NCBI RefSeq assembly: GCF_902459465.1
Contig: NC_047066.1
Span: 6,633,047 to 6,697,046 of the forward strand
From: Asterias rubens
Lineage: Eukaryota
Direction of reading: 5' to 3'
Length of the DNA stretch: 64,000 bases
Both the position numbers and the translations under genes were made by a program. Positions 1-44,257 of this stretch are shown in pieces. The number at the start of each line of letters is the position of its first letter. The stretch's first letter is position 1. The notes under the pieces were generated by a model. The model did not search any database and was not told the origin of the DNA. It was given only the letters and a program-made list of their open reading frames with translations.

Positions 1-2810
1 ACTTCTTGTGCACTATTCTCATCATTATCGATGTATTCTTCAACCTCTATGTGTTCAATGCTGCAGTCACTACCACTAACATTTTCAACAACACCTTGAC
101 TCTCTTTGTGATCAACATAGTCAGCACCCTCGCTCCAACCATCCAGGATACGTCTGTATTGTTTTCTATTTATCTGCCGAGTGCCCACAAGCATTTCACC
201 ATCGTCAACTTTCCGATCCCCCATCCCGTAATCACTGTCAGAATCTTCAGTCATGTTGATAAATCTTTGTGCAGCTGCCCTAGCTCTGCCTACATCCGAA
301 TCGCTGTCTCCGCTACTCGAGAACAACTCCTGTGGTACTCTCTTTCCGATGGGACGTCTGCCACAATGCCTAGAGAACTTCATAAAATTCAAGGGAATCA
401 CTTTCGGTAAGATTTCACCAGGTGCCGCCGGAGGTTTCATCAGCTGAAGGACAGGAGAGAGACAGTGGGACTTGGGTATGGCGAGTTCTTCGGAGGAGGA
501 CTTACTCCAAGAGTCTGTCTGCTTTGTGGAATCGGACGACCCTGCAGACTTGATTCTTCTTCGATGACTTTGTCTTCGCAGAAGAGGGGTGGGCTTTTGG
601 GGGGACCGGCTCTGAGTAGATACATTCATTATGGACTCAATGAAGCTTTTGAGAGTATCTGAATATTCTGTTTCTTTTCTTGGTGACTGAAAGGGCTTTG
701 AGGTACTTGGTTTCACCAATTGAGTGACAGTAGAGAGACATTGGGACTTGAGTGTAGCAGCTTCTTCAGAGTCCATCTGCCCCAGTGAATCTGAAGACTC
801 TGAAGACTCGATTCTTCTTCGATGACTTTGTCTTCGCAGAAGAGGGGTGGGCTTTGGAGGAGACTTGCTACGATTAGCCTGTACAAGCTTTAAAGACTCA
901 AAGAACCGTTTGAGAACATCCGTTTCTTTCCCTGGTAGCTGGGAGGGCTTTGAAAAGTTCTTGCTATCACTACATACATCCAGTAAAGAATCCATGCAGT
1001 TTTTGATTACTGTTACTAGTTCAACTTTTTGGTCCGAGGGAGTTGTTAATGTTGAGCATCCTTTAGGAGGAATTTGGCTCGCAAAGGATGGTGTTTCATG
1101 CACAGTCTGAGTTTGGGTTTCACGAAAGTCTGTTTGACACGACTGGCTGTTTAATGAAGAGTGGGTTGATGCCCTTGCGTGTTCTGACTCAAGCTTGTCT
1201 GGTTTTAACACAACTGGTGAAACCTGGACACCAATTCTGACATTTCCCGATGTCTGGATTTCCAATGATGGTGGGCATTTGCATTCTGAGCAAGAACACA
1301 ATGCACATGTTGGCCCTGCTTCAGCTCCCTGCTGTTTTGGTGTTTCAAAGTCACTGCCATTTTCTACAGGGGCCTTGTTGATGGCAACTTCTTGTTCTGT
1401 TTGCACGTGAGGAACCTTTGATTGCGTTTGGCAGTGTTTTTCAACAAAAGTTTCATTTGGATTTGATAGTGGTGCAGACAGTTTGATGTCTTGGGACTTC
1501 ACTGTATGTAAATCCTCTTTGGGACTCATTTTTCCTTGAGTGACATCAAGCTCCCCAATACTTTCTCTGTATTTACGTTTCAGACTGATGCGTCGCCGTC
1601 TCTTTTGCTCATGACAAGCAATCTTTGCTTTCGCCAGTCTTGCAGAAAGGCTAGATCTTTTTGAAGTTGAAAGCTCTTCAAGTAGATCTGAAAGAGTAAT
1701 ACTTAAACATGGATCAGATGTCGAGGATATTTGGGGTGTTTGTTGTTGATAAAGCGCTCCAACTCCTTCAACTCCTGGCTGATTTTTAGACTGAACCATG
1801 ATTTCTGCTTCTTCCAAAGATGTACCAGATGCCGGGATGTTTTGCTTACACTTTTCTGTCTGGACCCTCGGGGTGCTGACTCGATGTAACCACGACGACT
1901 TAGGTGTTTCGAACCTATTCAAGTTGGTGCTAGTTCTTTGTGGTTCTGCGAGATGCTCAGTTGACAATACGACCATTGGTGCTGCAGTTTTCCCAGATTT
2001 ACTTCTTCCTTTGGTTTTCTTAGAATGAGAAATTGTGGAGTGTCCAGAACTTTCAAGACCTTTCTTTATGCGTTTTTTTTTCTTCAGTCTCTTGGCCTCG
2101 GTTGGTGCCAATTCTGTCATGACTCGTTTCAGCCCTTTTGCGAGAGGATTATCAGGTACTTTGAGTGGATGGAGAGTTGAACTTTCAAATACCTGCTCTT
2201 GATCAGTTTGTTTTGAATTGCGGATAGATTTGACAGAAGCAAAGGAATCCCCTTCAATGATCTCTATGATTTCAGCTGTGTCTTCCTGAGAACTCACAAG
2301 ACTCGGCGTTCCCTTTTGAATCAGGCCGCTTTTTCTTCTGTGCCTCCCTCTCCTCTTGATACTCAAGGAATTATCTGCCACAATAACATCTTTGGACACA
2401 CTCTTTACGGTTTGATTGCCATCCCCTGATTGAACTGGCTCATCTATCCCATCAATAAGGCGTTGTCTCTTCAATCTTTTCCTGGGGCTTGGAGTTGCCT
2501 GATCTGAGTTTGAGTTTTGACAGTCCCTCAGTGGCGATATACTATGAATCCTCATCAGTCCGTCATCAGCAACGTCTTGCCAAAAGTCTGCGCTCAAATT
2601 CGAAAAGACAGGTTGGCTTTCCCTTGCTGGCTTTGTTGGGGTTTTTAAAACAGTTTGCATTGTTGGAGTGTTTTTTGCGTTGCAAGGCATTTTTTGTAAT
2701 AATGCAGAGTCGAAATGGTCAAAATCCAAACTGTTCAAACAAAGTGGTTTCTCCACGCAGCACAATATCCCATTCTGTATGATGGTTGACACGGGCTGGC
2801 TGGCACAAGC
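1..2810 (-). CDS. Partial giant exon of an unidentified gene, at least 936 codons. It encodes a Ser/Lys/Arg/Glu-rich low-complexity protein with a KRLKKKKRIKK NLS-like motif and an internal repeat SPPKPTPLLRRQSHRRRI[E/K]S. The ORF continues past position 1.
   Basis: I translated the minus strand by hand in consecutive 60-nt blocks. The frame is open from the in-frame stop at about 2811-2813 (just upstream of a candidate acceptor tttag|GCT at 2810) down to position 1. The ORF track omits it, presumably because it has no in-window stop. All plus-strand ORFs here are short and scattered across frames. Confidence 0.55.
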
Positions 2811-3117
2811 CTAAACTGAAGCTCAAAGATGTTGATTCAATTCTGCACCTGATGAAAGATAAAACAAATCACACCAATTTAAAACAAAGGCAACACTTTT
2901 TTAAAATCTCAACTGATCAAGTGTTCAGCAATCAGTCTAGTCAAACAGAATGAATCAAGGGCTCATGGGTTGGAGAGGTTATGTGTAACACACTTGTAAG
3001 CCAAATGCTAGTAAAAACACGGATCGAAATCAAAATTCTCTCATGTTGTCTAGTCTCGGATAAAGACCCTCCTGTTATTGATACCCAACCATGGCCCAAG
3101 AGGGCGCTCTTACCTTA

Positions 3118-3300
3118 GTCTGCAATTACAAGGTCTGGGGCCTTTCTCAAAGCTCGGCTTGGGCTCCGGCTTAGGCTCCGCGTGCTGTGTATGCAGCTTG
3201 CATTGTAACCTGCATTTTGTTGCAGCGCGTATTGCACGGATATCAGCACGCAGAGCCTGAGCCGGAGCCCAAGCCGAGCTTTGAGAAAGGCCCCTGGTAT
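3118..3300. repeat. Inverted repeat with ~45-bp arms (ggcctttctcaaagctcggcttgggctccggct ... agccggagcccaagccgagctttgagaaaggcc) and a ~70-bp spacer
   Basis: Read directly. It explains the overlapping ORFs 3078..3260 (+) and 3115..3411 (-). Confidence 0.85.
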
Positions 3301-4055
3301 TACAGCGGTGAGGGAATCAAACAAAGGAATAGTAGCGCCCTCTATCGTCAATGATGCAGTATAAGTGTAACTTATAAGGCTCCCCTCTAACATTTTGGGC
3401 CTCATTTTCAAAACTGTGATGATTGGTTAACATTTTACTGTTGGTTGCCATCATTAACTTCAGTTTCCTCTGTACTACACAACCAAAACTTTTTCCACAT
3501 ACTTAGTATACACTCATAAGGCTTGCATTGCCTTTTAATTGAGTTACAATAAAAACCATCCTAAAATTCTCTCACGTTGTCTAGTCTTGGATAAAAACAT
3601 CCTAAAAAATGCAATTTTCTTCTTGGCGGCTATTAGGCCTATTGTTGTTTTTCTGTTGAAGCGTCAATTTTTGAAGCGTTATCTTTGGTCACCAGCGCTG
3701 TATCCCACGGGACGAGTACCATGCCAGTTACAGTGAATCGATGAACCGCCGAGCCACGGTGAAAGGGCCGTTACAAGGCAGTGCAGCAGTGCGTGTGCGC
3801 TGTCCGTTTTCGAATGCCTGCCATTCAATCATGGGGGGGCCTTTCTTGAGTTATAAGTTATAGTTTCTAGAAAAGAAGTAGATGATGCCCCATCCATAAT
3901 TCATAATCATCACACATAGAATGATCTGTACACTAGTGCTGGGCGAATAGTGAAATTTTGTTATTCGGATACCGCTGGCCAACTATCCGAAATTAACCGG
4001 ATATTCGAATAGTTTTTTCGCCGCCAGAGGACGCTATTAAACAAAATATATATAT

Positions 4056-4077
4056 ATATATATATATATTTAAATTT
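4056..4077. repeat. (AT)11 dinucleotide repeat
   Basis: Read directly. Confidence 0.95.
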
Positions 4078-4090
4078 TATTTATTTTTTT

Positions 4091-4106
4091 GCCACTAGAG
4101 GGCGCT
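4091..4106 (+). promoter_or_regulatory. CTCF-consensus-like motif CCACTAGAGGGCGCTG
   Basis: It matches CCAS(Y)AGRKGGCRSY at every position. Related cores ...GAGAGGGCGCT... occur at 36666-36681 and 40448-40463. Confidence 0.35.
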
Positions 4107-4738
4107 GTTCGTTTGTGAATGAGATCTTCTGGGCGGATTGATATTAGTTTTAGACAGTGTCACTCGGTTCATAAAAATGACCGGATCTAATTTAAAGATG
4201 GCGATTTGCTTTTTCTTTTGATCGTGGATGACTCTACGTGAAGGAAAACTTGTTGTAATCTTTGAACAAATTACGTCAGAAATGTCAATGTTTTAACTCT
4301 TCACGGAGGTGAGCATAGTTAAATACTTAATTTATGCTGTTTTATGCTGTCTTAATAGAAGTCTTTAGACGTCCTCAGCCAAACAAGAACTGTTACAAAT
4401 ACTCATTTTTGCCAAGAACAATAGCCCAATGGAATAGCCTACCATCTAACATCAGGGAGTCACCAACTATAGAAATCTTAAAGTCTTTTAAAAGCCTGTT
4501 GTAACCGTTTGTTATAAAATGCATATGGTTGGAAAGATGTTGTAAAAGTAGAATACAATGATCTACACAAATATGGGGATGCCTCGAAATTGCGTGGTTT
4601 TCTTTTTACCTCGTCCCATAACACGGTCGGCCATTTATGGGAGTCAAAATTTTGACTCCCATATAAATGGCCGACCGTGCTAGTTTGCGTGTATAAAGAA
4701 AACCGTACAGTTTTGAGTGATACTTGTGTGGATCATTA

Positions 4739-4870
4739 TATTCTACTTTGGATAACTTTCCATATGGCGCCACCACTTTTTCACTCATTTTTCAATCAGG
4801 TTAATAAGTTCCTATATTATTTTATATCGAATGAAAAAGTGGTGGCGCCATACGGAAACTTTTCCTCTAC
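4739..4870. mobile_element. Hairpin MITE family E (arms ..ttccatatGGCGCCACCACTTTTTCActcat.. / ..tgaaaaagtggtggcgccatacggaaa..)
   Basis: A perfect inverted repeat of about 35 bp was read directly. Other copies are at 37733-37868 and 45612-45725, with a half copy at 38640-38712. Confidence 0.8.
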
Positions 4871-6784
4871 TTTTAAAACATCTTTCTAACCATATGCATT
4901 TTATAACAAACGGTTTCAAACGCTTTTTATAGAACAACTCGACCGATCCAAGGCAACGTGTTCCTTTAATTAACAGCTCAACTCAGACGAAACCGAAATA
5001 GTTCTAGGAGTAATCGTTCGTAACCCTCCAGATTCATCCATGGCCATGGTCTGGATGGGACCATGAGTGACATTGACAACAATGACATCTTTCAATTACA
5101 AATTGTGTTACTTACAGCATGGGTGTTAATTTATCCAAAATACCGCGTTCTTTACCTTTTTTCTCAGGGCTCAAATGTCCATCTTTCGAGAAATAGAATA
5201 AGTTGTTGGCCTCTCAATCAAAAAGTGCATGTGCAGAGTAGACTCAAAACCATGCGCGTTATCATCCTTTTTCCCATTATGTCAAGAAAGCACGCAGCGC
5301 GCTTGTGTTTTGCAATAACAGATCGTACCCACAGCAGAACCGGGGTTGACATTTGCATTTGATCTACGCTTGTAAACCTATATCACGTGTCTGTCAGGTG
5401 GTTTGTTTTATTTCCAAATTGCGCAGGCTGTAGTTACGCGAGCAAACTACAGATGCGCGTGCTAACTCAAATTGCAACTTGTAGTGCAGAATCCAAAATA
5501 CCTGTACGGGGGGGGGGGGGGATGGGGGCGGGATCGTTTAAGGGGTAGATTAAATAACAAATGTTCACTTTTAACATTTTTATATTTTATTTTAGCAACG
5601 CTGAAAACCCCCAGCACTTCACCCAGGGCCCAATGTCATAGAGCTGCTAAGTTAAGCACAAAAATTTAGTTGATAATCCTGTTTGTATGAAGGAAGAAAT
5701 TTCATGCTAAGCAAATTTTGGTGATTAGCAGCTCTATGAAATTGGGCCCTGTGAGCGCCCTTGACATTTTTTGGCTTTAAAACCATGGAGGCCTGTAGAC
5801 GGAGGTTGGAATCACGTTTAGGCTTGCCCATCCTTGTCTATTCTCTCATTAGGTTGAAAAGATCAGCTGAGAAACACCCCGATATCCCTAACAACTACAT
5901 CTGTAGGCTACAGCTGAGCATCTGTCTTCCCCTGGAATACGACAAAGATAACTTGTCTGCGCTTCAGATCAAAATTGGCTGGACGCAGATGCGCTACTCC
6001 TTCAGTCTTTCACACTTGTGAACTAATTATACCAACAAAACAACACAACACTTCTTGAAACTCTTCATAAAATAAATATAAATTGGTTTTTATTCAAACT
6101 ACATGTTTGTAGTAATTTAGTACAATGGTATAGTTGGGTCAGTGGGCATAAATCTGTACAACAAATAATATTCACAAATTAAGGCAAACTAAAGTTCTTT
6201 TGATTCTACCACAAGGGACAAACCGAAGCTGTCTGGATTTCGAAACATGTATATCAATGCAACGTCAAAAAAAACATATGTACAGGAGAATTATTGCATA
6301 TACTTGTAAAAGAATTAATCGCATTTAGTGTTTATATAGTCTCGGAAAAAGTGTCAAAAACTTTCATTTTGTGATGAGATGAATTTATTTCACGTCACAC
6401 CAAAACTATAACTTTGTCAGACAGTTCTAGGGCAAGTGTTGGAAAGAGCTGCATGCTTGTGAACTTTAAAAAACAAAACCGGGGTGAAATAAGTCAATCA
6501 AGCAATAAATATATGCGCAGCCACAACAACAACAAATTAAAAAACCAATCCATTATAATACGCTATACCCCTTTATACATTGATTCATCACACCAGCAGA
6601 TGGTGCCCAAAAGTGTGTCAAAAGTTGACACTTAAAAACTCACAAGACAAAAGGTTTGGATGACATATCGTAATGATGAAAAAATAGCACCAAAATGCAC
6701 TGTTTATGATGTAGGCCATGTAAGGTTTGATTAGTGAATACCACATGACCAACAATATTCCGATCAAATGACAAGGATCTGGAC

Positions 6785-9938: not shown

Positions 9939-22549
<12,611 letters not shown>

Positions 22550-39487: not shown

Positions 39488-41047
39488 CCATGCAGTTATT
39501 ACCAGGTACTTGTGCAATGGCAACAGACTGACCAATCAAGAGGCCGCACATGCTGGACACGCCCACATGAATCTATAACTGTCGATTACATCATAGTTTT
39601 GCTTCAACACGCCGCGCGGCGCCTGCATTGAAAAGAAACTAAAAGACGTCATCAAAATTCACGTTTGTTTGACAATCGATTCATGATATTGATAGACGCT
39701 TGGGTTTTTGTTTGATTGCCGACGTTGCAAGAAAAGTGTTAAAACTCGTTGATAATTCATCTTGCACTGTTAAAAAGAAAAGAATACAAACAAGAAAGCA
39801 AAATCCGACCGGGCCACTCAGGCGAGTGCGCGCTGTCAATTTGCTAGAAAAAAATAGTTATCAACAAAATTAGCAAGGTTGTCGAACCTCCTAACTATCC
39901 ACAAAACCTGAAAACCACATCATCGCAGGGCGATTACTTGCACAAATAAAAGCTGACTAGACCTAGTGTTTGTTAATTCCACACCCTTTATTTTGTATCT
40001 AGCCCTGGCCCTTTGAAGCAATTTTTCTAGAAAACAAATCCAAATACACAGGCCGCAAACGTACATCTGATGCAACCATCTGTAATAATACTGTAGACGG
40101 ATCGTGAGTCACAGCACGCCAGTTCGCGAGGTTCATTACCTGGTATAATACGAAAACGGAGTGAATATGCTGACCAAATTATCTGGGGTCCATTCACTCA
40201 GTGACTAGGTGTAAGTGGATGACCTCAGCAAACAAAAACAAAGTAATTTTACCGTCTTGGAAAAGTGAATGAGTTACACACGAGCAACTCGCCAAAACAT
40301 AAATGTCTACTTTAAAATATGTTTGTTTGTATAGATAATTATTTAAACCACAAGAGTTAGATTTGTTGACTTATGTATTCTTTATTTGGGGTTGGGTGGT
40401 TACTTGCAGATGGAGTGCTACATTTTTGTTTAAATCTAAAAAGCCACGAGAGGGCGCTATCAAACTGATGTGACACCAAAAACAGCCGCAGTTTACAGCA
40501 CAGTGTGATGGATGGCTATTCGTTTTTATTGATGATGCAGATCATTTTTAGGAAATGTTAATATTACGTTAGTACTACTTCACCTCCTGTGCATCAGCTT
40601 ATAGACCATGAAGGTGATGCAATGGGGGGGGGGCAGATGAGCAACAAAATAGATAATGGACACTTGAAACAATTGCCTTCAAACCACGTTTACCGGTAGT
40701 GAATGCGAAATGTGTCATAATTTGTCAAACATTACAAATTCCATTATGTTCAGGAACAATTACATTTTTCCTTCAATCTTCAATACATCTTACAAACTTT
40801 ATGTGGTAAATATCAGCATTTATAATTATATGATGGTGTCTTTAGAAATAACCGACGATGTTAAAGGCAGAGGACACCACACAACTTCGTGTGACAAGGG
40901 TAATTTTTCTTCCATAGTTATCTCGCAACTCCGATGACCAACCGAGCTAAAATTTTCACAGGTTTACACCAAGTGAGAAGACTGGATTTTGACAATTACC
41001 AATCGTGTCCAGTGTCTTTAAAATCCTTCAGAGGCTATCATGTAGGC

Positions 41048-41670
41048 CTATACACAAGGATTTTCGGGACAGAGTTCCTCTCCGCCGAACTCCAGAGCAG
41101 CGCCTTCGAATATCTGTGTACTCAAAAGACGGTAGCCAAACAGCCTACGCTCATACACGGCGATGTCAACCGATGCCGCAAAGCTTTCAACCAGTACATT
41201 CTCGAAGCCCCGCTCGGTGGGCCCTCTCAGACACTTCTGAAGGGTCGAAGGAGGCGCCCTAGCCCGTATGACCAACTTGTGCCGGAACGAAACCACTTCG
41301 ATGGACACCTCGCCGGAGCAGCCATCCGAGGTCACCCGGGCCATTGAATTGACGGGGTGGAAGTTCAACTCCAGTTCGGTGTTGAAGTCCCTGACACCGA
41401 AGAGGTGAGCTGGTACCGATAGAGGACCGAACCCAAGCACCCCAAATGTCCCTGCGAAGGCCGTCGATGAGGTTGAGTTGACACCCTGCATCCAGATCCA
41501 TGAAGCAGGGAAGCCGTTTCCCCAGTTTTTCTCCTGGTGCATTGTACCGTCGCCTTGGATGCGGAGGCCCGTCTTGTCATTCTCCCAAGTAAAGTCGCCA
41601 GGTGTTGCTAGGCTATAGACGAACCAATGGAGAGGGATGAACGGTACGTTGCCAAGCCAATCTTCTGGTC
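41048..41670 (-). CDS. Tocopherol-cyclase-like exon 2 (C-terminal half, stop at 41048)
   Basis: Continuous ORF from the acceptor to the stop. Contains the KNWG..FP..W.W signature. Confidence 0.75.
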
Positions 41671-42631
41671 CTGTTGATGGAGAAAACCATAAGAAAAATT
41701 GAAAGAAAAGTGAGGTGTTATTCTAAAGAGAAGACCATCTAATTTTGGATTACACTTTGTCTCATGTCACGGCAACCTTATTGTATTTTCGTAATCCAAA
41801 CCATCACCGGGGGGAGGGAGGGGTCGGCACAAAGGGCTATCGAAACAAAACATGGGCTGGAGGTGATGATTAAAAAGGCGCTATCAAACAAAGTTTTAAC
41901 ATAGTTCGCCATAATGGGGCCACAGAATCTCCAGGGGGACCGAAATATTAAAGAGCATTCAACATTTTGTGAATTACTCAGTGAGCCGTGGCTGTCTCTT
42001 CTGTTTTTAAAACTACTTTGACCCAAGTGTTTCATAAAAAGTGGTGCAAGTATAAACGTTGATTTAGAGAAAGCACTTTGGAAAAAAAAACAGAGAACAC
42101 AAAATCAGTCTCACCTTTACCGTGAGGTCCCCACGGAGATGGAGGCCCGAAGTTTCCCGAGAAGCGATCGTCTCCGATCGTAAAGTCGAACGTTGTTGAA
42201 TCTGGCGTCACATTGAAGAATCCGAACGGCTTAGCTACCCATTCGAAATGTGACGGACTCCAGTTGTCTGGATTTCCCGTCACCGGTCTTCCGCCGGATA
42301 CAGTCACCGAGATGGTGTCCTCGTCTGGGTAGGCCTCGGCCACGACAAACGGTGCCGAATTGCCGTCACTTCGGATGATGGAGATATACGTCAGTGGAGG
42401 AGATGTGCTGTTGTTCCCTTCTTCCAATGGTTTTGGTAAGACCCGACCGAAGAGAACGCCGAAGGAGCGTGGGGAGGATGAGTCCGTTATACGGGCATAC
42501 CAACCTTCGATGAACGGCCCTTGTTCGGGATAAACGTGGGGGTCATTATTATTTGCAGCCACTCCCGTTATTGCGGCAACTAGCAGAGCAAAAACGAGGG
42601 TCATTATGGACCGCCAAACCAATGCAGCCAT
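41048..42631 (-). CDS. Tocopherol-cyclase-like protein (Pfam Tocopherol_cycl-type) with N-terminal signal peptide/anchor. Two exons: 42115-42631 and 41048-41670. 379 aa.
   Basis: Exon A equals minus ORF 42032..42631 up to the donor g|gtgaga (MAALVWRSIMTLVFALLVAAITGVAANNNDPHVYPEQGPFIEGWYARITD...). Exon B starts at acceptor caacag|GA at 41670 and contains minus ORF 41048..41542. The motifs EGWY[AF], VPFIPLHWF and HQEKNWGNGFPASWIWMQ parallel plant VTE1 (FEGWYF... SEKNWGGGFPRKWFWVQ). Confidence 0.75.
42115..42631 (-). CDS. Tocopherol-cyclase-like exon 1 (signal peptide plus N-terminal half)
   Basis: ATG at 42629-42631. Hydrophobic h-region is LVFALLVAAITGVAA. Donor is phase 1. Confidence 0.75.
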
Positions 42632-44257
42632 CTTGTTGCAAGGGCTGCTATGACATAGAGTTAAAATCGTTTAATCAGAACCTGATGCATAAATGGCTTG
42701 AATTGTCCTCGGGGATATAGACTATTATGCGGTGATGAAAAAGTTAAACCGTTGTGTCAACAGTGTCTGGTTTGAGTTAGATAACACTGCCCTTTGCTTT
42801 TTTGGATAACATGTTAAATAAGCACCACGTGATTGTTAAAGCTTGGAGGAAAGGTCATTGTTTTCACTAATATCTGTGTTCGGGGAAAAAAATGCATTTT
42901 TAGTTGCATTTTAAAACTCAATCCGATCTACCCAAACTCATCAAAAGTTGTAAACTTATGTTTTTATGCTGAGAGATAAAGACACCAGAACAATCACTCA
43001 AACAATTAAAACAAACACCCCTAATAAACAATACAAAAACTACCCTAATTAAAAATTAGGCCAAGTTCACGTGACCCTATAATAGAATATTATTTTTATG
43101 CACATTATACCGGCCTCCTGGCCAACACGGTCACAGAATGACACGAAAAGCAACTTCTATAGACGTGTAGTCGTAGCCAAACCCAATGACTACACGTCTA
43201 TAGCTAGATCTTCCATCATAACTTTTGGCCCAAACATTAAAAAATATATTTTTTTGAGTGAATTGTATTTCAAAGAGTATCACCCGCTCTAACGAAAAAA
43301 AGTTTAACTTTACTTTTAATGGTCAGGAACCATGACAAAAATTTAAAACGTTTCTTATAAATCAAACAAGAATTGGTCACGTGATATATTGTCGGGATCC
43401 CGACAAAAAGTAATTGTTAGCACTTTATTTCACTACTACTAATAGTCTGCGGACTTTTTCGAGCAATGAAAGCTTGTAACTTTCTCGACCCCAATCAACA
43501 TACCTATTGAATTTTAATTCAAAGTTTTTGGGTCAAATCGGCCAAAAATCTGACATAGCATCTTTGCCACATTCATAATATCATTTTTGATACGGCCCTT
43601 GACTATTTACGAGGTTATGTTGCACATAATCAGTGACATGTTTTTGTGCACTCCTCGTCCAGCTTTTCTCTAAAAAAGGTTGCAAACATAATTATCACTT
43701 ACCTCACAATATTTTGGGACTAAACTTTTCGCAGACACACATTCCAAAGCTAATACAAATTTGTACGTAACACGTCTGGTTTCAACTTAAAGCATATAGA
43801 GTGTATGAATGCAACAAAGAAAGATAAAGGAAATCCGCTACTCCACAACTTGCCGAAATGTTCTACTGGATTTTTACTTGTAATGTTGTATCACTGTTTT
43901 GTGACCCTTTCAGATACAGCTGTTGGTCATTAATTGTAAGCAATTATACTGAAAAGAACAAAATGCGTCGGCCACACCCTTTTTAAAATAATGCACAACT
44001 TTCCCCTACTCGGGAAATAGAACAGCGAAGTCCCTAGTCCGTGACCGCTCTCAAGAATGGCGGCACATTCTTGTTGCAACAAATGGCTTTTTTGAATATC
44101 TCAAATTCCCGCGACAAGAAACAACAAAGGTAGACAAAAAACCACGATAGTTTACATTGTGCAGAACGAAACAAAACAAGAGTTTACTACAACATTCGAC
44201 CACTGCCAACGTTGCTTTATACACCGTTAAATCGTCTGGGCTTACGGCGGTGGGAAC
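42632..44257. promoter_or_regulatory. Head-to-head intergenic region between the tocopherol-cyclase-like gene (-) and the mosaic protease gene (+). Candidate bidirectional promoter.
   Basis: The two start codons are divergent and 1.6 kb apart. The interval is AT-rich. Confidence 0.3.

Follow-up and report, generated by a model that had tools for sequence, protein, structure and literature searches.

The 64,000-nt stretch of the Asterias rubens genome analyzed here, hereafter the window (RefSeq assembly GCF_902459465.1, contig NC_047066.1, positions 6,633,047 to 6,697,046), carries on its minus strand a two-exon gene for a 379-aa protein that is, judged by sequence, a member of the tocopherol-cyclase family (PF14249). 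Within this family, the tocopherol cyclase-like (TC-like) product falls into a distinct, large, and mostly extracytoplasmic subfamily that phylogeny separates from the orthologous group of the plant enzyme VTE1. The predicted function, which we hold with somewhat better than even confidence, is that of an active, cofactor-independent extracytoplasmic enzyme that protonates an isoprenoid C=C bond and then cyclizes or hydrates its substrate. To our knowledge, closure of the tocochromanol ring is held to occur in photosynthetic organisms only. The gene described here stands for a tocopherol-cyclase relative that is conserved, under constraint, and apparently secreted, and that occurs in several animal phyla, heterotrophic protists, and bacteria. 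The identity of its substrate would define a new functional branch among the cofactor-free isoprenoid-protonating enzymes (tocopherol cyclase, CrtC, and kievitone hydratase), which are also of biocatalytic interest, and would reveal whether dietary prenyl lipids undergo enzymatic processing outside animal cells.

Part of this is already on record: the gene is present in RefSeq as an uncharacterized entry with a precomputed Pfam domain, and bacterial and coral homologues have been noted before (PMC4963081, PMC3750612, PMC6214176). New are the delimitation of a large subfamily with its predicted signal-peptide and disulfide features, its distribution over Ambulacraria and molluscs with conserved synteny and intron, and a model-based fold link to the kievitone hydratase/CrtC/AttH group. 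The finding weighs less than first thought because the RefSeq/Pfam annotation exists, animal homologues have been listed, and the evidence is for vertical inheritance with losses, not for transfer from plants.

Membership in the tocopherol-cyclase family had been proposed, together with EGWY and EKNWG-type motifs, in a first-pass annotation that a model made from the letters of the window, and profile searches agree on both counts. The Pfam scan returns a single match, PF14249 (Tocopherol_cycl), at 45.5 bits against a gathering cut-off of 26.6 (E 6.9e-12), and the orthologue from the hemichordate Ptychodera matches the model over its full length at 64.7 bits. Plant and cyanobacterial tocopherol cyclases (VTE1/SXD1/slr1737, EC 5.5.1.24) are homologous over the whole core: hhalign of a 20-sequence animal-type alignment against 12 plant VTE1 sequences, the latter being database entries found with a plant-type probe that was itself left out of the comparisons, aligns residues 40-372 to plant residues 90-448 with a probability of 98.4% (E 6.4e-15, 323 columns, 23% identity). 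The NCBIfam scan of the Asterias protein gave no match, and HMMER found nothing meaningful among PDB sequences, whether the query was the single protein or the profile.

The conserved residues bear out this relationship. Both VTE1 and the starfish protein carry EGWY, (Y/H)xEKNWGxxFPxxWxWxQ, PxxxGF, an acid at position 334 (Glu in the starfish, Asp in plants), and A-x-E-x-G-G. EGWY, located at residues 42-45 and equivalent to FFEGWYF in plant VTE1, is kept in 83-98% of 168 family members. In the second motif, at residues 217-234, E219, N221, G223, F226, P227, and W232 occur in 98% or more of family members, and plant VTE1 has the same residues (YSEKNWGGGFPRKWFWVQ); it likewise shares E366 and G368 of the C-terminal motif (98-99% of the family). 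Residues that recur in 80% or more of the 168 members and are the same in the plant enzymes comprise E42, G43, W44, Y45, S56, F129, W167, W188, E219, N221, W222, G223, F226, P227, W230, W232, G249, P323, G327, A364, E366, and G368; R47 corresponds to Lys or Arg in plants. The subfamily and the plant cyclases have in common four buried-type acids (E42, E219, E334, and E366) and the tryptophans W44, W188, W222, W230, and W232. An earlier study points to the EKNWG motif (YxEKNWG) as the part of tocopherol cyclases that is probably catalytic (PMC4963081). In contrast to VTE1, the starfish protein is about 110 residues shorter, without the plant inserts and the C-terminal extension, and it has a His for the Tyr before EKNWG, two additional pairs of cysteines, and, in place of a plastid transit peptide, a predicted signal peptide.

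The gene model itself, a 379-aa product from two exons with a GT-AG phase-1 intron, likewise stood as first described (coordinates in Table 1). Rebuilt from the exons 42631..42115 and 41670..41048, the joined sequence of 1140 nt encodes 379 aa plus a stop and is 100% identical to the RefSeq entry 'uncharacterized protein LOC117290107 [Asterias rubens]'. Read through without splicing, the minus strand of 40800-42900 holds a 199-aa open reading frame (ORF) from the ATG at 42631 and a second ORF that ends at the TAG. The intron interrupts the invariant Gly of G-P-E-G/D-W (G|PEGW) and has a GC content of 39.4%, compared with 54.6% for the coding sequence (CDS) and a window average of 39.0%. The RefSeq model, which is 370 aa long and begins at Met10 of the 379-aa product, has the identical splice junction, which is therefore supported by an independent pipeline. 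As to the start, Met1 (42631, 379 aa) is set against Met10 (42604, the 370-aa RefSeq form); the context of Met1, AACAAGATGG, is a stronger Kozak sequence than that of Met10, this ATG is the first after an in-frame stop 14 codons upstream, and it provides the basic n-region of the predicted signal peptide. The phase-1 intron position is the same in Acanthaster, Ptychodera, and Antedon, and the two coding blocks of Lytechinus break at the homologous site, whereas the Aplysia intron differs, being of phase 2 and splitting the EGWY Trp codon. In another sea urchin, a Logan contig of 1329 nt holds the CDS unbroken across the homologous junction and is thus spliced mRNA; transcript support for the junction comes from this sea-urchin contig at the homologous site, and the Asterias junction rests on the RefSeq model.

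Matches among orthologues reach an E value of 1e-160, and over 374 codons compared between Asterias and Acanthaster the proportion of nonsynonymous differences (pN) is 0.228 against a synonymous proportion (pS) of 0.757, a value that is saturated, so that a proper dN/dS is not computable and only pN and pS are given. With such E values and pN far under pS, the gene is not a chance ORF; on these sequence comparisons, the locus is a functional gene with an intact ORF under purifying selection. The 64-kb window holds no second copy of it.

Several features indicate that the Asterias product apparently enters the secretory pathway and would end up extracellularly or in a digestive or lysosomal lumen. 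An N-terminal signal peptide or anchor had been noted at the outset, and the data fit a signal peptide: the N-terminus, MAALVWRSIMTLVFALLVAAITGVAA, reaches a Kyte-Doolittle value of 2.8 over 12 residues and combines a hydrophobic core, IMTLVFALLVAAI (13-17 residues), with Arg7 in the basic n-region and small residues at -1/-3. The AlphaFold2 (AF2) model places a helix at residues 2-22, detached from the domain and followed by a low-confidence linker (pLDDT, the per-residue confidence value, below 50 at residues 23-26), and all aligned orthologues have an equivalent hydrophobic segment directly ahead of the conserved mature start NQYDPH (N-x-x-D-P-H). Hydrophobic N-termini are present in nearly all of the 180 family sequences inspected; in bacterial members, the hydrophobic segment is directly followed by Cys, as in lipoproteins, or the signal peptide is of the Ala-x-Ala type. 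There are five N-x-S/T sequons in the Asterias protein, of which NVT at residue 140 is kept in most of the ambulacrarian orthologues aligned, and no transmembrane segment, glycosylphosphatidylinositol (GPI) signal, or KDEL was detected in it.

Four cysteines are invariant among animal members, and they are gained and lost in pairs. Of 165 members, 133 have both Cys290 and Cys373, 28 have neither, and 4 are discordant (concordant in 161/165); for Cys319 and a Cys located 2-9 residues past Cys373, the corresponding counts are 42, 119, and 4. This pattern suggests two disulfides, C290-C373 throughout the family including bacteria and C319-C378 in animals and close relatives, and hence an oxidizing compartment. 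Where in the secretory pathway the protein finally resides may vary from species to species: the Asterias protein ends in NPCV, whereas several orthologues end in x-x-E-L (...TAEL, ...KSEL, ...LQEL, ...DNEL), reminiscent of KDEL-type signals for retrieval to the endoplasmic reticulum (ER).

Orthologues with 35-66% identity are found in echinoderms, one hemichordate, and molluscs. They include those of the asteroid Acanthaster planci, the ophiuroid Amphiura filiformis (two copies on one contig), the echinoids Diadema setosum and Lytechinus pictus, the crinoid Antedon mediterranea, the hemichordate Ptychodera flava, the gastropods Aplysia, Batillaria, Candidula, Littorina, and Elysia, and the bivalve Ostrea edulis. 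Both Amphiura copies lie on a single chromosome-scale contig of 67.5 Mb, the second model being N-terminally truncated (285 aa), and the pair may represent a lineage-specific duplication. The protein of Elysia marginata bears the UniRef name 'Apextrin C-terminal domain-containing protein' and an NCBI low-quality flag; this name is probably a propagation artefact or the product of a fused gene model.

The subfamily extends well beyond animals. An exhaustive HMM search with the 20-sequence alignment retrieves 1257 cluster representatives at E <= 1e-3, of which 237 remain at E <= 1e-30, and the best 150 of these matches are almost all 350-400 aa long with a hydrophobic N-terminus and a C-terminal ALEFGGxYxC. 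Named members among non-animal eukaryotes are from Balamuthia (Amoebozoa), Alphamonas, Nannochloropsis, Chrysoparadoxa, and a MAST-4 stramenopile. The Nannochloropsis oceanica protein, labelled 'tocopherol chloroplastic q6k7v6', reaches only 31 bits against the Pfam model, and its place in the tree is within the secreted subfamily rather than beside plant VTE1; its annotation as a plastid tocopherol cyclase is probably wrong. Thus, the initial view that the family is typical of plants, algae, and cyanobacteria does not apply to the starfish protein, whose separate subfamily, unlike the VTE1 group, is present in heterotrophs, both protists and bacteria.

In prokaryotes, a genome scan yields 17 loci, with products 26-33% identical to the starfish protein and mostly near full length, in Betaproteobacteria, Desulfobacterota, Silvanigrellaceae, and Myxococcota. 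These relatives belong to the subfamily of the starfish protein and have the C290/C373 pair in common with it. Previously, 'tocopherol cyclase-like' proteins of unknown function with a preserved EKNWG have been described from the heterotrophic bacteria Rhodococcus, Clostridium, Haloplasma, and Corynebacterium (PMC4963081). They share the Pfam family of the starfish protein and come from non-photosynthetic organisms, but their species are absent from the relatives found here, which are from Proteobacteria, Desulfobacterota, Silvanigrellaceae, and Myxococcota and several of which are of the lipoprotein type. Genes beside the 17 loci are heterogeneous, including CheW/MCP, DUF4037, DUF4125, DUF4349, a PHB-depolymerase-like esterase, YdjM, and LamG/FG-GAP. 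In Silvanigrellaceae-type and related loci from metagenome-assembled genomes, the surroundings of the gene for the TC-like lipoprotein are conserved: it lies downstream of genes for a CheW-like protein and a dCache/MCP chemoreceptor and adjoins a convergent gene of ~620 aa, with no functional link evident.

A phylogeny with plant and metazoan sequences, the means by which the first-pass annotation had proposed to place the gene, sets the subfamily apart from plant VTE1. This neighbor-joining tree (172 sequences, 349 columns, 100 bootstraps, plants as outgroup), which includes no cyanobacterial or cnidarian/coral sequences, splits the 168 subfamily members from the plant enzymes and recovers an Ambulacraria clade of echinoderms and the hemichordate (93%) and a mollusc clade (69%). 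Every named animal falls within one group of 29 sequences (57%), which is nested in a clade of 46 (71%) whose other named members are all protists, and bacteria are placed elsewhere. Hence, with modest support, the animal clade appears to mirror the species tree, and its nearest relatives appear to be protist rather than plant or cyanobacterial. Such a pattern, given the modest support and the simple method, fits a gene that was passed down vertically from the bilaterian ancestor or an older one and was later lost in some lineages; of the two origins initially entertained, horizontal acquisition and retention in the lineage, it is the latter that is favored.

Absence from the standard metazoan gene set, also asserted at first, needs qualification in that tocopherol-cyclase homologues had already been listed for coral genomes (PMC3750612, PMC6214176). 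The coral 'tocopherol cyclase' models (Acropora digitifera K09834; a Tocopherol_cycl domain) are the earlier animal members of the PF14249 family. It should be noted that these entries are rows of annotation tables, one of them headed 'plant-derived proteins', and that the protein is analyzed in neither paper. If the coral homologues belong to the starfish-type subfamily, the gene would be older than the bilaterian ancestor.

The predicted model of the Asterias protein shows an AttH-like, all-beta architecture of two barrels. In fold comparison, it scores 24.1 with CghA (6KBC), 23.6 with AttH (2ICH), 23.5 with Fsa2 (7E5T), 23.4 with a further Diels-Alderase (pericyclase; 7DMO), 21.2 with kievitone hydratase (7A0Q), and 17.4 with 25-phosphosteroid lyase (9FZN), and Foldseek returns the identical set of structures (E 3e-9 to 4e-4, TM 0.41-0.54). 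The link to solved structures came from fold comparison only, not from sequence search, and no solved tocopherol cyclase structure turned up in these comparisons.

On this scaffold, an isoprenoid-protonating enzyme could work as follows, by a chemistry taken as common to tocopherol cyclase, carotenoid 1,2-hydratase (CrtC), and kievitone hydratase. A lipophilic substrate would be held between the two barrels, where a carboxylic acid would protonate a trisubstituted isoprenoid C=C bond and aromatic side chains would stabilize the resulting tertiary carbocation. A nucleophile would then capture the cation, either an intramolecular phenol or hydroxyl, giving ring closure of the chromanol type, or water, giving hydration. 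VTE1 acts by acid-catalyzed addition to an isoprenoid double bond, and the same presumably holds for the starfish protein. In CrtC, the terminal prenyl double bond lies in a tunnel between the barrels and receives its proton from the acid D268, and W110, W283, and W285 stabilize the carbocation, as supported by mutagenesis (PMC12402844). The starfish E219 is followed by W230 and W232 at +11 and +13 residues (E294, W305, and W307 in plant VTE1), an arrangement E219...W230xW232 that resembles, at the level of sequence pattern, the D268...W283xW285 of CrtC. Kievitone hydratase of Nectria/Fusarium is a secreted, N-glycosylated, cofactor-free enzyme of about 38 kDa with a 19-residue signal peptide that hydrates a prenylated isoflavonoid (PMC5805349). 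The predicted signal peptide, the five sequons, and the paired cysteines of the starfish protein are sequence features that would suit a protein of this kind. Since the enzyme would be luminal or extracellular, it most likely acts on a prenylated lipid of exogenous or luminal origin, with prenylquinols and terpenoids from the diet or from prey, (acyclic) carotenoid ends, and delta-24 sterol side chains as candidates; de novo synthesis of vitamin E is unlikely.

Some observations speak against such an enzyme. PF14249 aligns only with the C-terminal half of the Asterias protein (residues 177-369 to profile positions 148-335), and the plant Tyr of YxEKNWG is replaced by H217, a His in 99% of the subfamily. 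The same fold houses pericyclases and a phosphate lyase of different chemistry, and shared ancestry inflates the cysteine co-occurrence statistics. No isoprenoid or quinone genes lie beside the 17 bacterial loci, whose neighborhoods give no functional hint. In the literature, experimentally established catalytic residues were not found for tocopherol cyclase itself. Literature searches, also by the LOC identifiers of five orthologues, brought up no paper on what any animal or protist member does, where it is located, or how it is built.

Among the alternatives, a non-catalytic, lipocalin-like secreted protein that binds or carries lipids on the AttH barrel scaffold is unlikely. The barrel fold is related to that of calycins, AttH itself has no proven activity, and secreted lipid carriers are common in animals; however, bacteria, protists, and animals have all kept the four acids and five tryptophans since their proteins diverged from the plant cyclases, a pattern more typical of a catalytic site than of the hydrophobic pocket of a carrier.

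A more specific proposal, and a rather improbable one, is that marine invertebrates (echinoderms, hemichordates, molluscs, and probably corals) and phagotrophic protists own a secreted prenylquinol/isoprenoid cyclase that makes chromanol antioxidants or defensive meroterpenoids. Plastoquinol, ubiquinol, and phytyl- or geranylgeranyl-quinols, dietary or endogenous, would be the substrates converted, and ring closure, the final step of tocochromanol-type biosynthesis, would in that case also take place in animals. For the chromanol and chromenol meroterpenoids that marine animals contain, the responsible enzymes are not known (PMC9078042).

It is improbable that the protein performs a different chemistry of the same fold, as a pericyclase of the CghA, Fsa2, or Phm7 type or an elimination lyase of the 25-phosphosteroid lyase type. 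At 6-15% identity to the starfish protein, the fungal decalin-forming Diels-Alderases (CghA 6KBC, Fsa2 7E5T, and Phm7 7E5U) and AttH (2ICH) lack the tocopherol-cyclase motifs, which the starfish protein has; they are pericyclases or proteins with no assigned function.

That the protein is a true tocopherol cyclase, orthologous to VTE1/slr1737, with which the starfish makes tocopherols or plastochromanol itself, is very improbable. The Pfam family name and the shared EKNWG/EGWY motifs would suggest it, and chromanols are known from marine invertebrates (PMC9078042). However, identity to plant VTE1 is 23% only, and the subfamily members tested on the Pfam model score 20-65 bits, with one giving no match, against ~680-855 bits for bona fide plant cyclases, which were scored with a plant-type query. 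In addition, the whole subfamily stands apart from plant sequences in the tree, it is found in non-photosynthetic amoebae, MAST-4, and proteobacteria, and the N-terminus reads as a secretory signal peptide rather than a plastid transit peptide. Signal-peptide features, paired cysteines, sequons, and a plastid-free host are at odds with a plastid/plastoglobule or cyanobacterial-type cytoplasmic location. Finally, animals are not known to have the upstream homogentisate prenyltransferase pathway.

The plant and cyanobacterial associations of the family name and a CDS GC of 0.55, above the window average of 0.39, might point to contamination of the assembly, recent horizontal transfer, or a pseudogene in decay; all three readings are effectively refuted by synteny, the common intron site, third-position GC content (GC3), constraint, and the tree. 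In Acanthaster, the TC-like gene lies between a mosaic LDLa/TSP1/trypsin protease gene and MVP, and tblastn of this locus against the window finds MVP, the TC-like gene, and the protease in identical order and orientation. The spliceosomal intron occupies one site in the crinoid, asteroids, echinoid, and hemichordate, and GC3 of the TC-like gene (0.595) equals that of the neighboring MVP exons (0.603). With the intact, constrained ORF under purifying selection and an animal clade that mirrors the species tree, these data exclude contamination, pseudogenization, and recent transfer, upholding the early judgement that contamination was unlikely. As far as sequence can tell, the gene is long-resident and vertically inherited, as indicated by synteny, the common intron position in Ambulacraria, and host-like GC3.

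Table 1. Features of the 64,000-nt Asterias rubens window (position 1 is the first letter of the window)
Feature	Position	Strand	Remarks
Coding exon 1	42115..42631	-	517 nt; Met1 to first base of Gly173 codon
Intron	41671..42114	-	444 nt, GT-AG (GTGAGA...CAACAG), phase 1, splits Gly173
Coding exon 2	41048..41670	-	623 nt including TAG stop 41048-41050; holds Pfam Tocopherol_cycl match, residues 177-369
Predicted signal peptide, residues 1-26	42554..42631	-	likely cleavage after VAA, before NNNDPH
E42-G43-W44-Y45 motif	42497..42508	-	invariant in 20 aligned animal-type sequences
H217-Q-E219-K-N-W-G-N-G-F-P-A-S-W230-I-W232-M-Q234 motif (HQEKNWGNGFPASWIWMQ, residues 217-234)	41486..41539	-	candidate catalytic acid and WxW
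A364-L-E366-F-G-G369 C-terminal motif	41081..41098	-	plant VTE1 equivalent AAVEVGGG
Candidate poly(A) signal AATAAA	40525..40530	-	517 nt past stop; pattern scan alone
MVP	about 31-36 kb (exons 31.4-36.3 kb)	-	Pfam or synteny/tblastn
Mosaic protease (Ldl_recept_a/TSP_1/Trypsin)	about 45-53 kb (exons 44.9-53.3 kb)	+	Pfam and tblastn
Malate dehydrogenase (MDH)	58.1-59.6 kb	-	Pfam scan of window ORFs
ERM/NF2-like gene	about 14-22 kb	-	Pfam scan of window ORFs

The neighbors initially named, MVP, MDH, an NF2-like gene, and a mosaic protease, were all recovered by Pfam or synteny. Genes of M14 procarboxypeptidases (Propep_M14 and Peptidase_M14) flank the TC-like gene in Lytechinus pictus (locus 1-1797) and Antedon mediterranea (1-6625 and 12847-19017), and no M14 carboxypeptidase gene of the kind seen in these two neighborhoods is present in the 64-kb window. 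M14 procarboxypeptidases are typically secreted digestive zymogens. The TC-like gene therefore neighbors secreted hydrolases in both arrangements, M14 in the urchin and crinoid and the mosaic protease in asteroids, and these secreted-protease neighbors are a weak contextual hint for the TC-like enzyme.

Two further features of the window lie apart from this locus. On the minus strand, an unbroken frame of 936 codons (3-2810) runs off the start of the window; it would be unusually long for an exon in this intron-rich region and has no Pfam match at E <= 0.01. At ~11690-12370, a long GA/CT dinucleotide microsatellite yields (SL)n and (RE)n translations in several reading frames of either strand.

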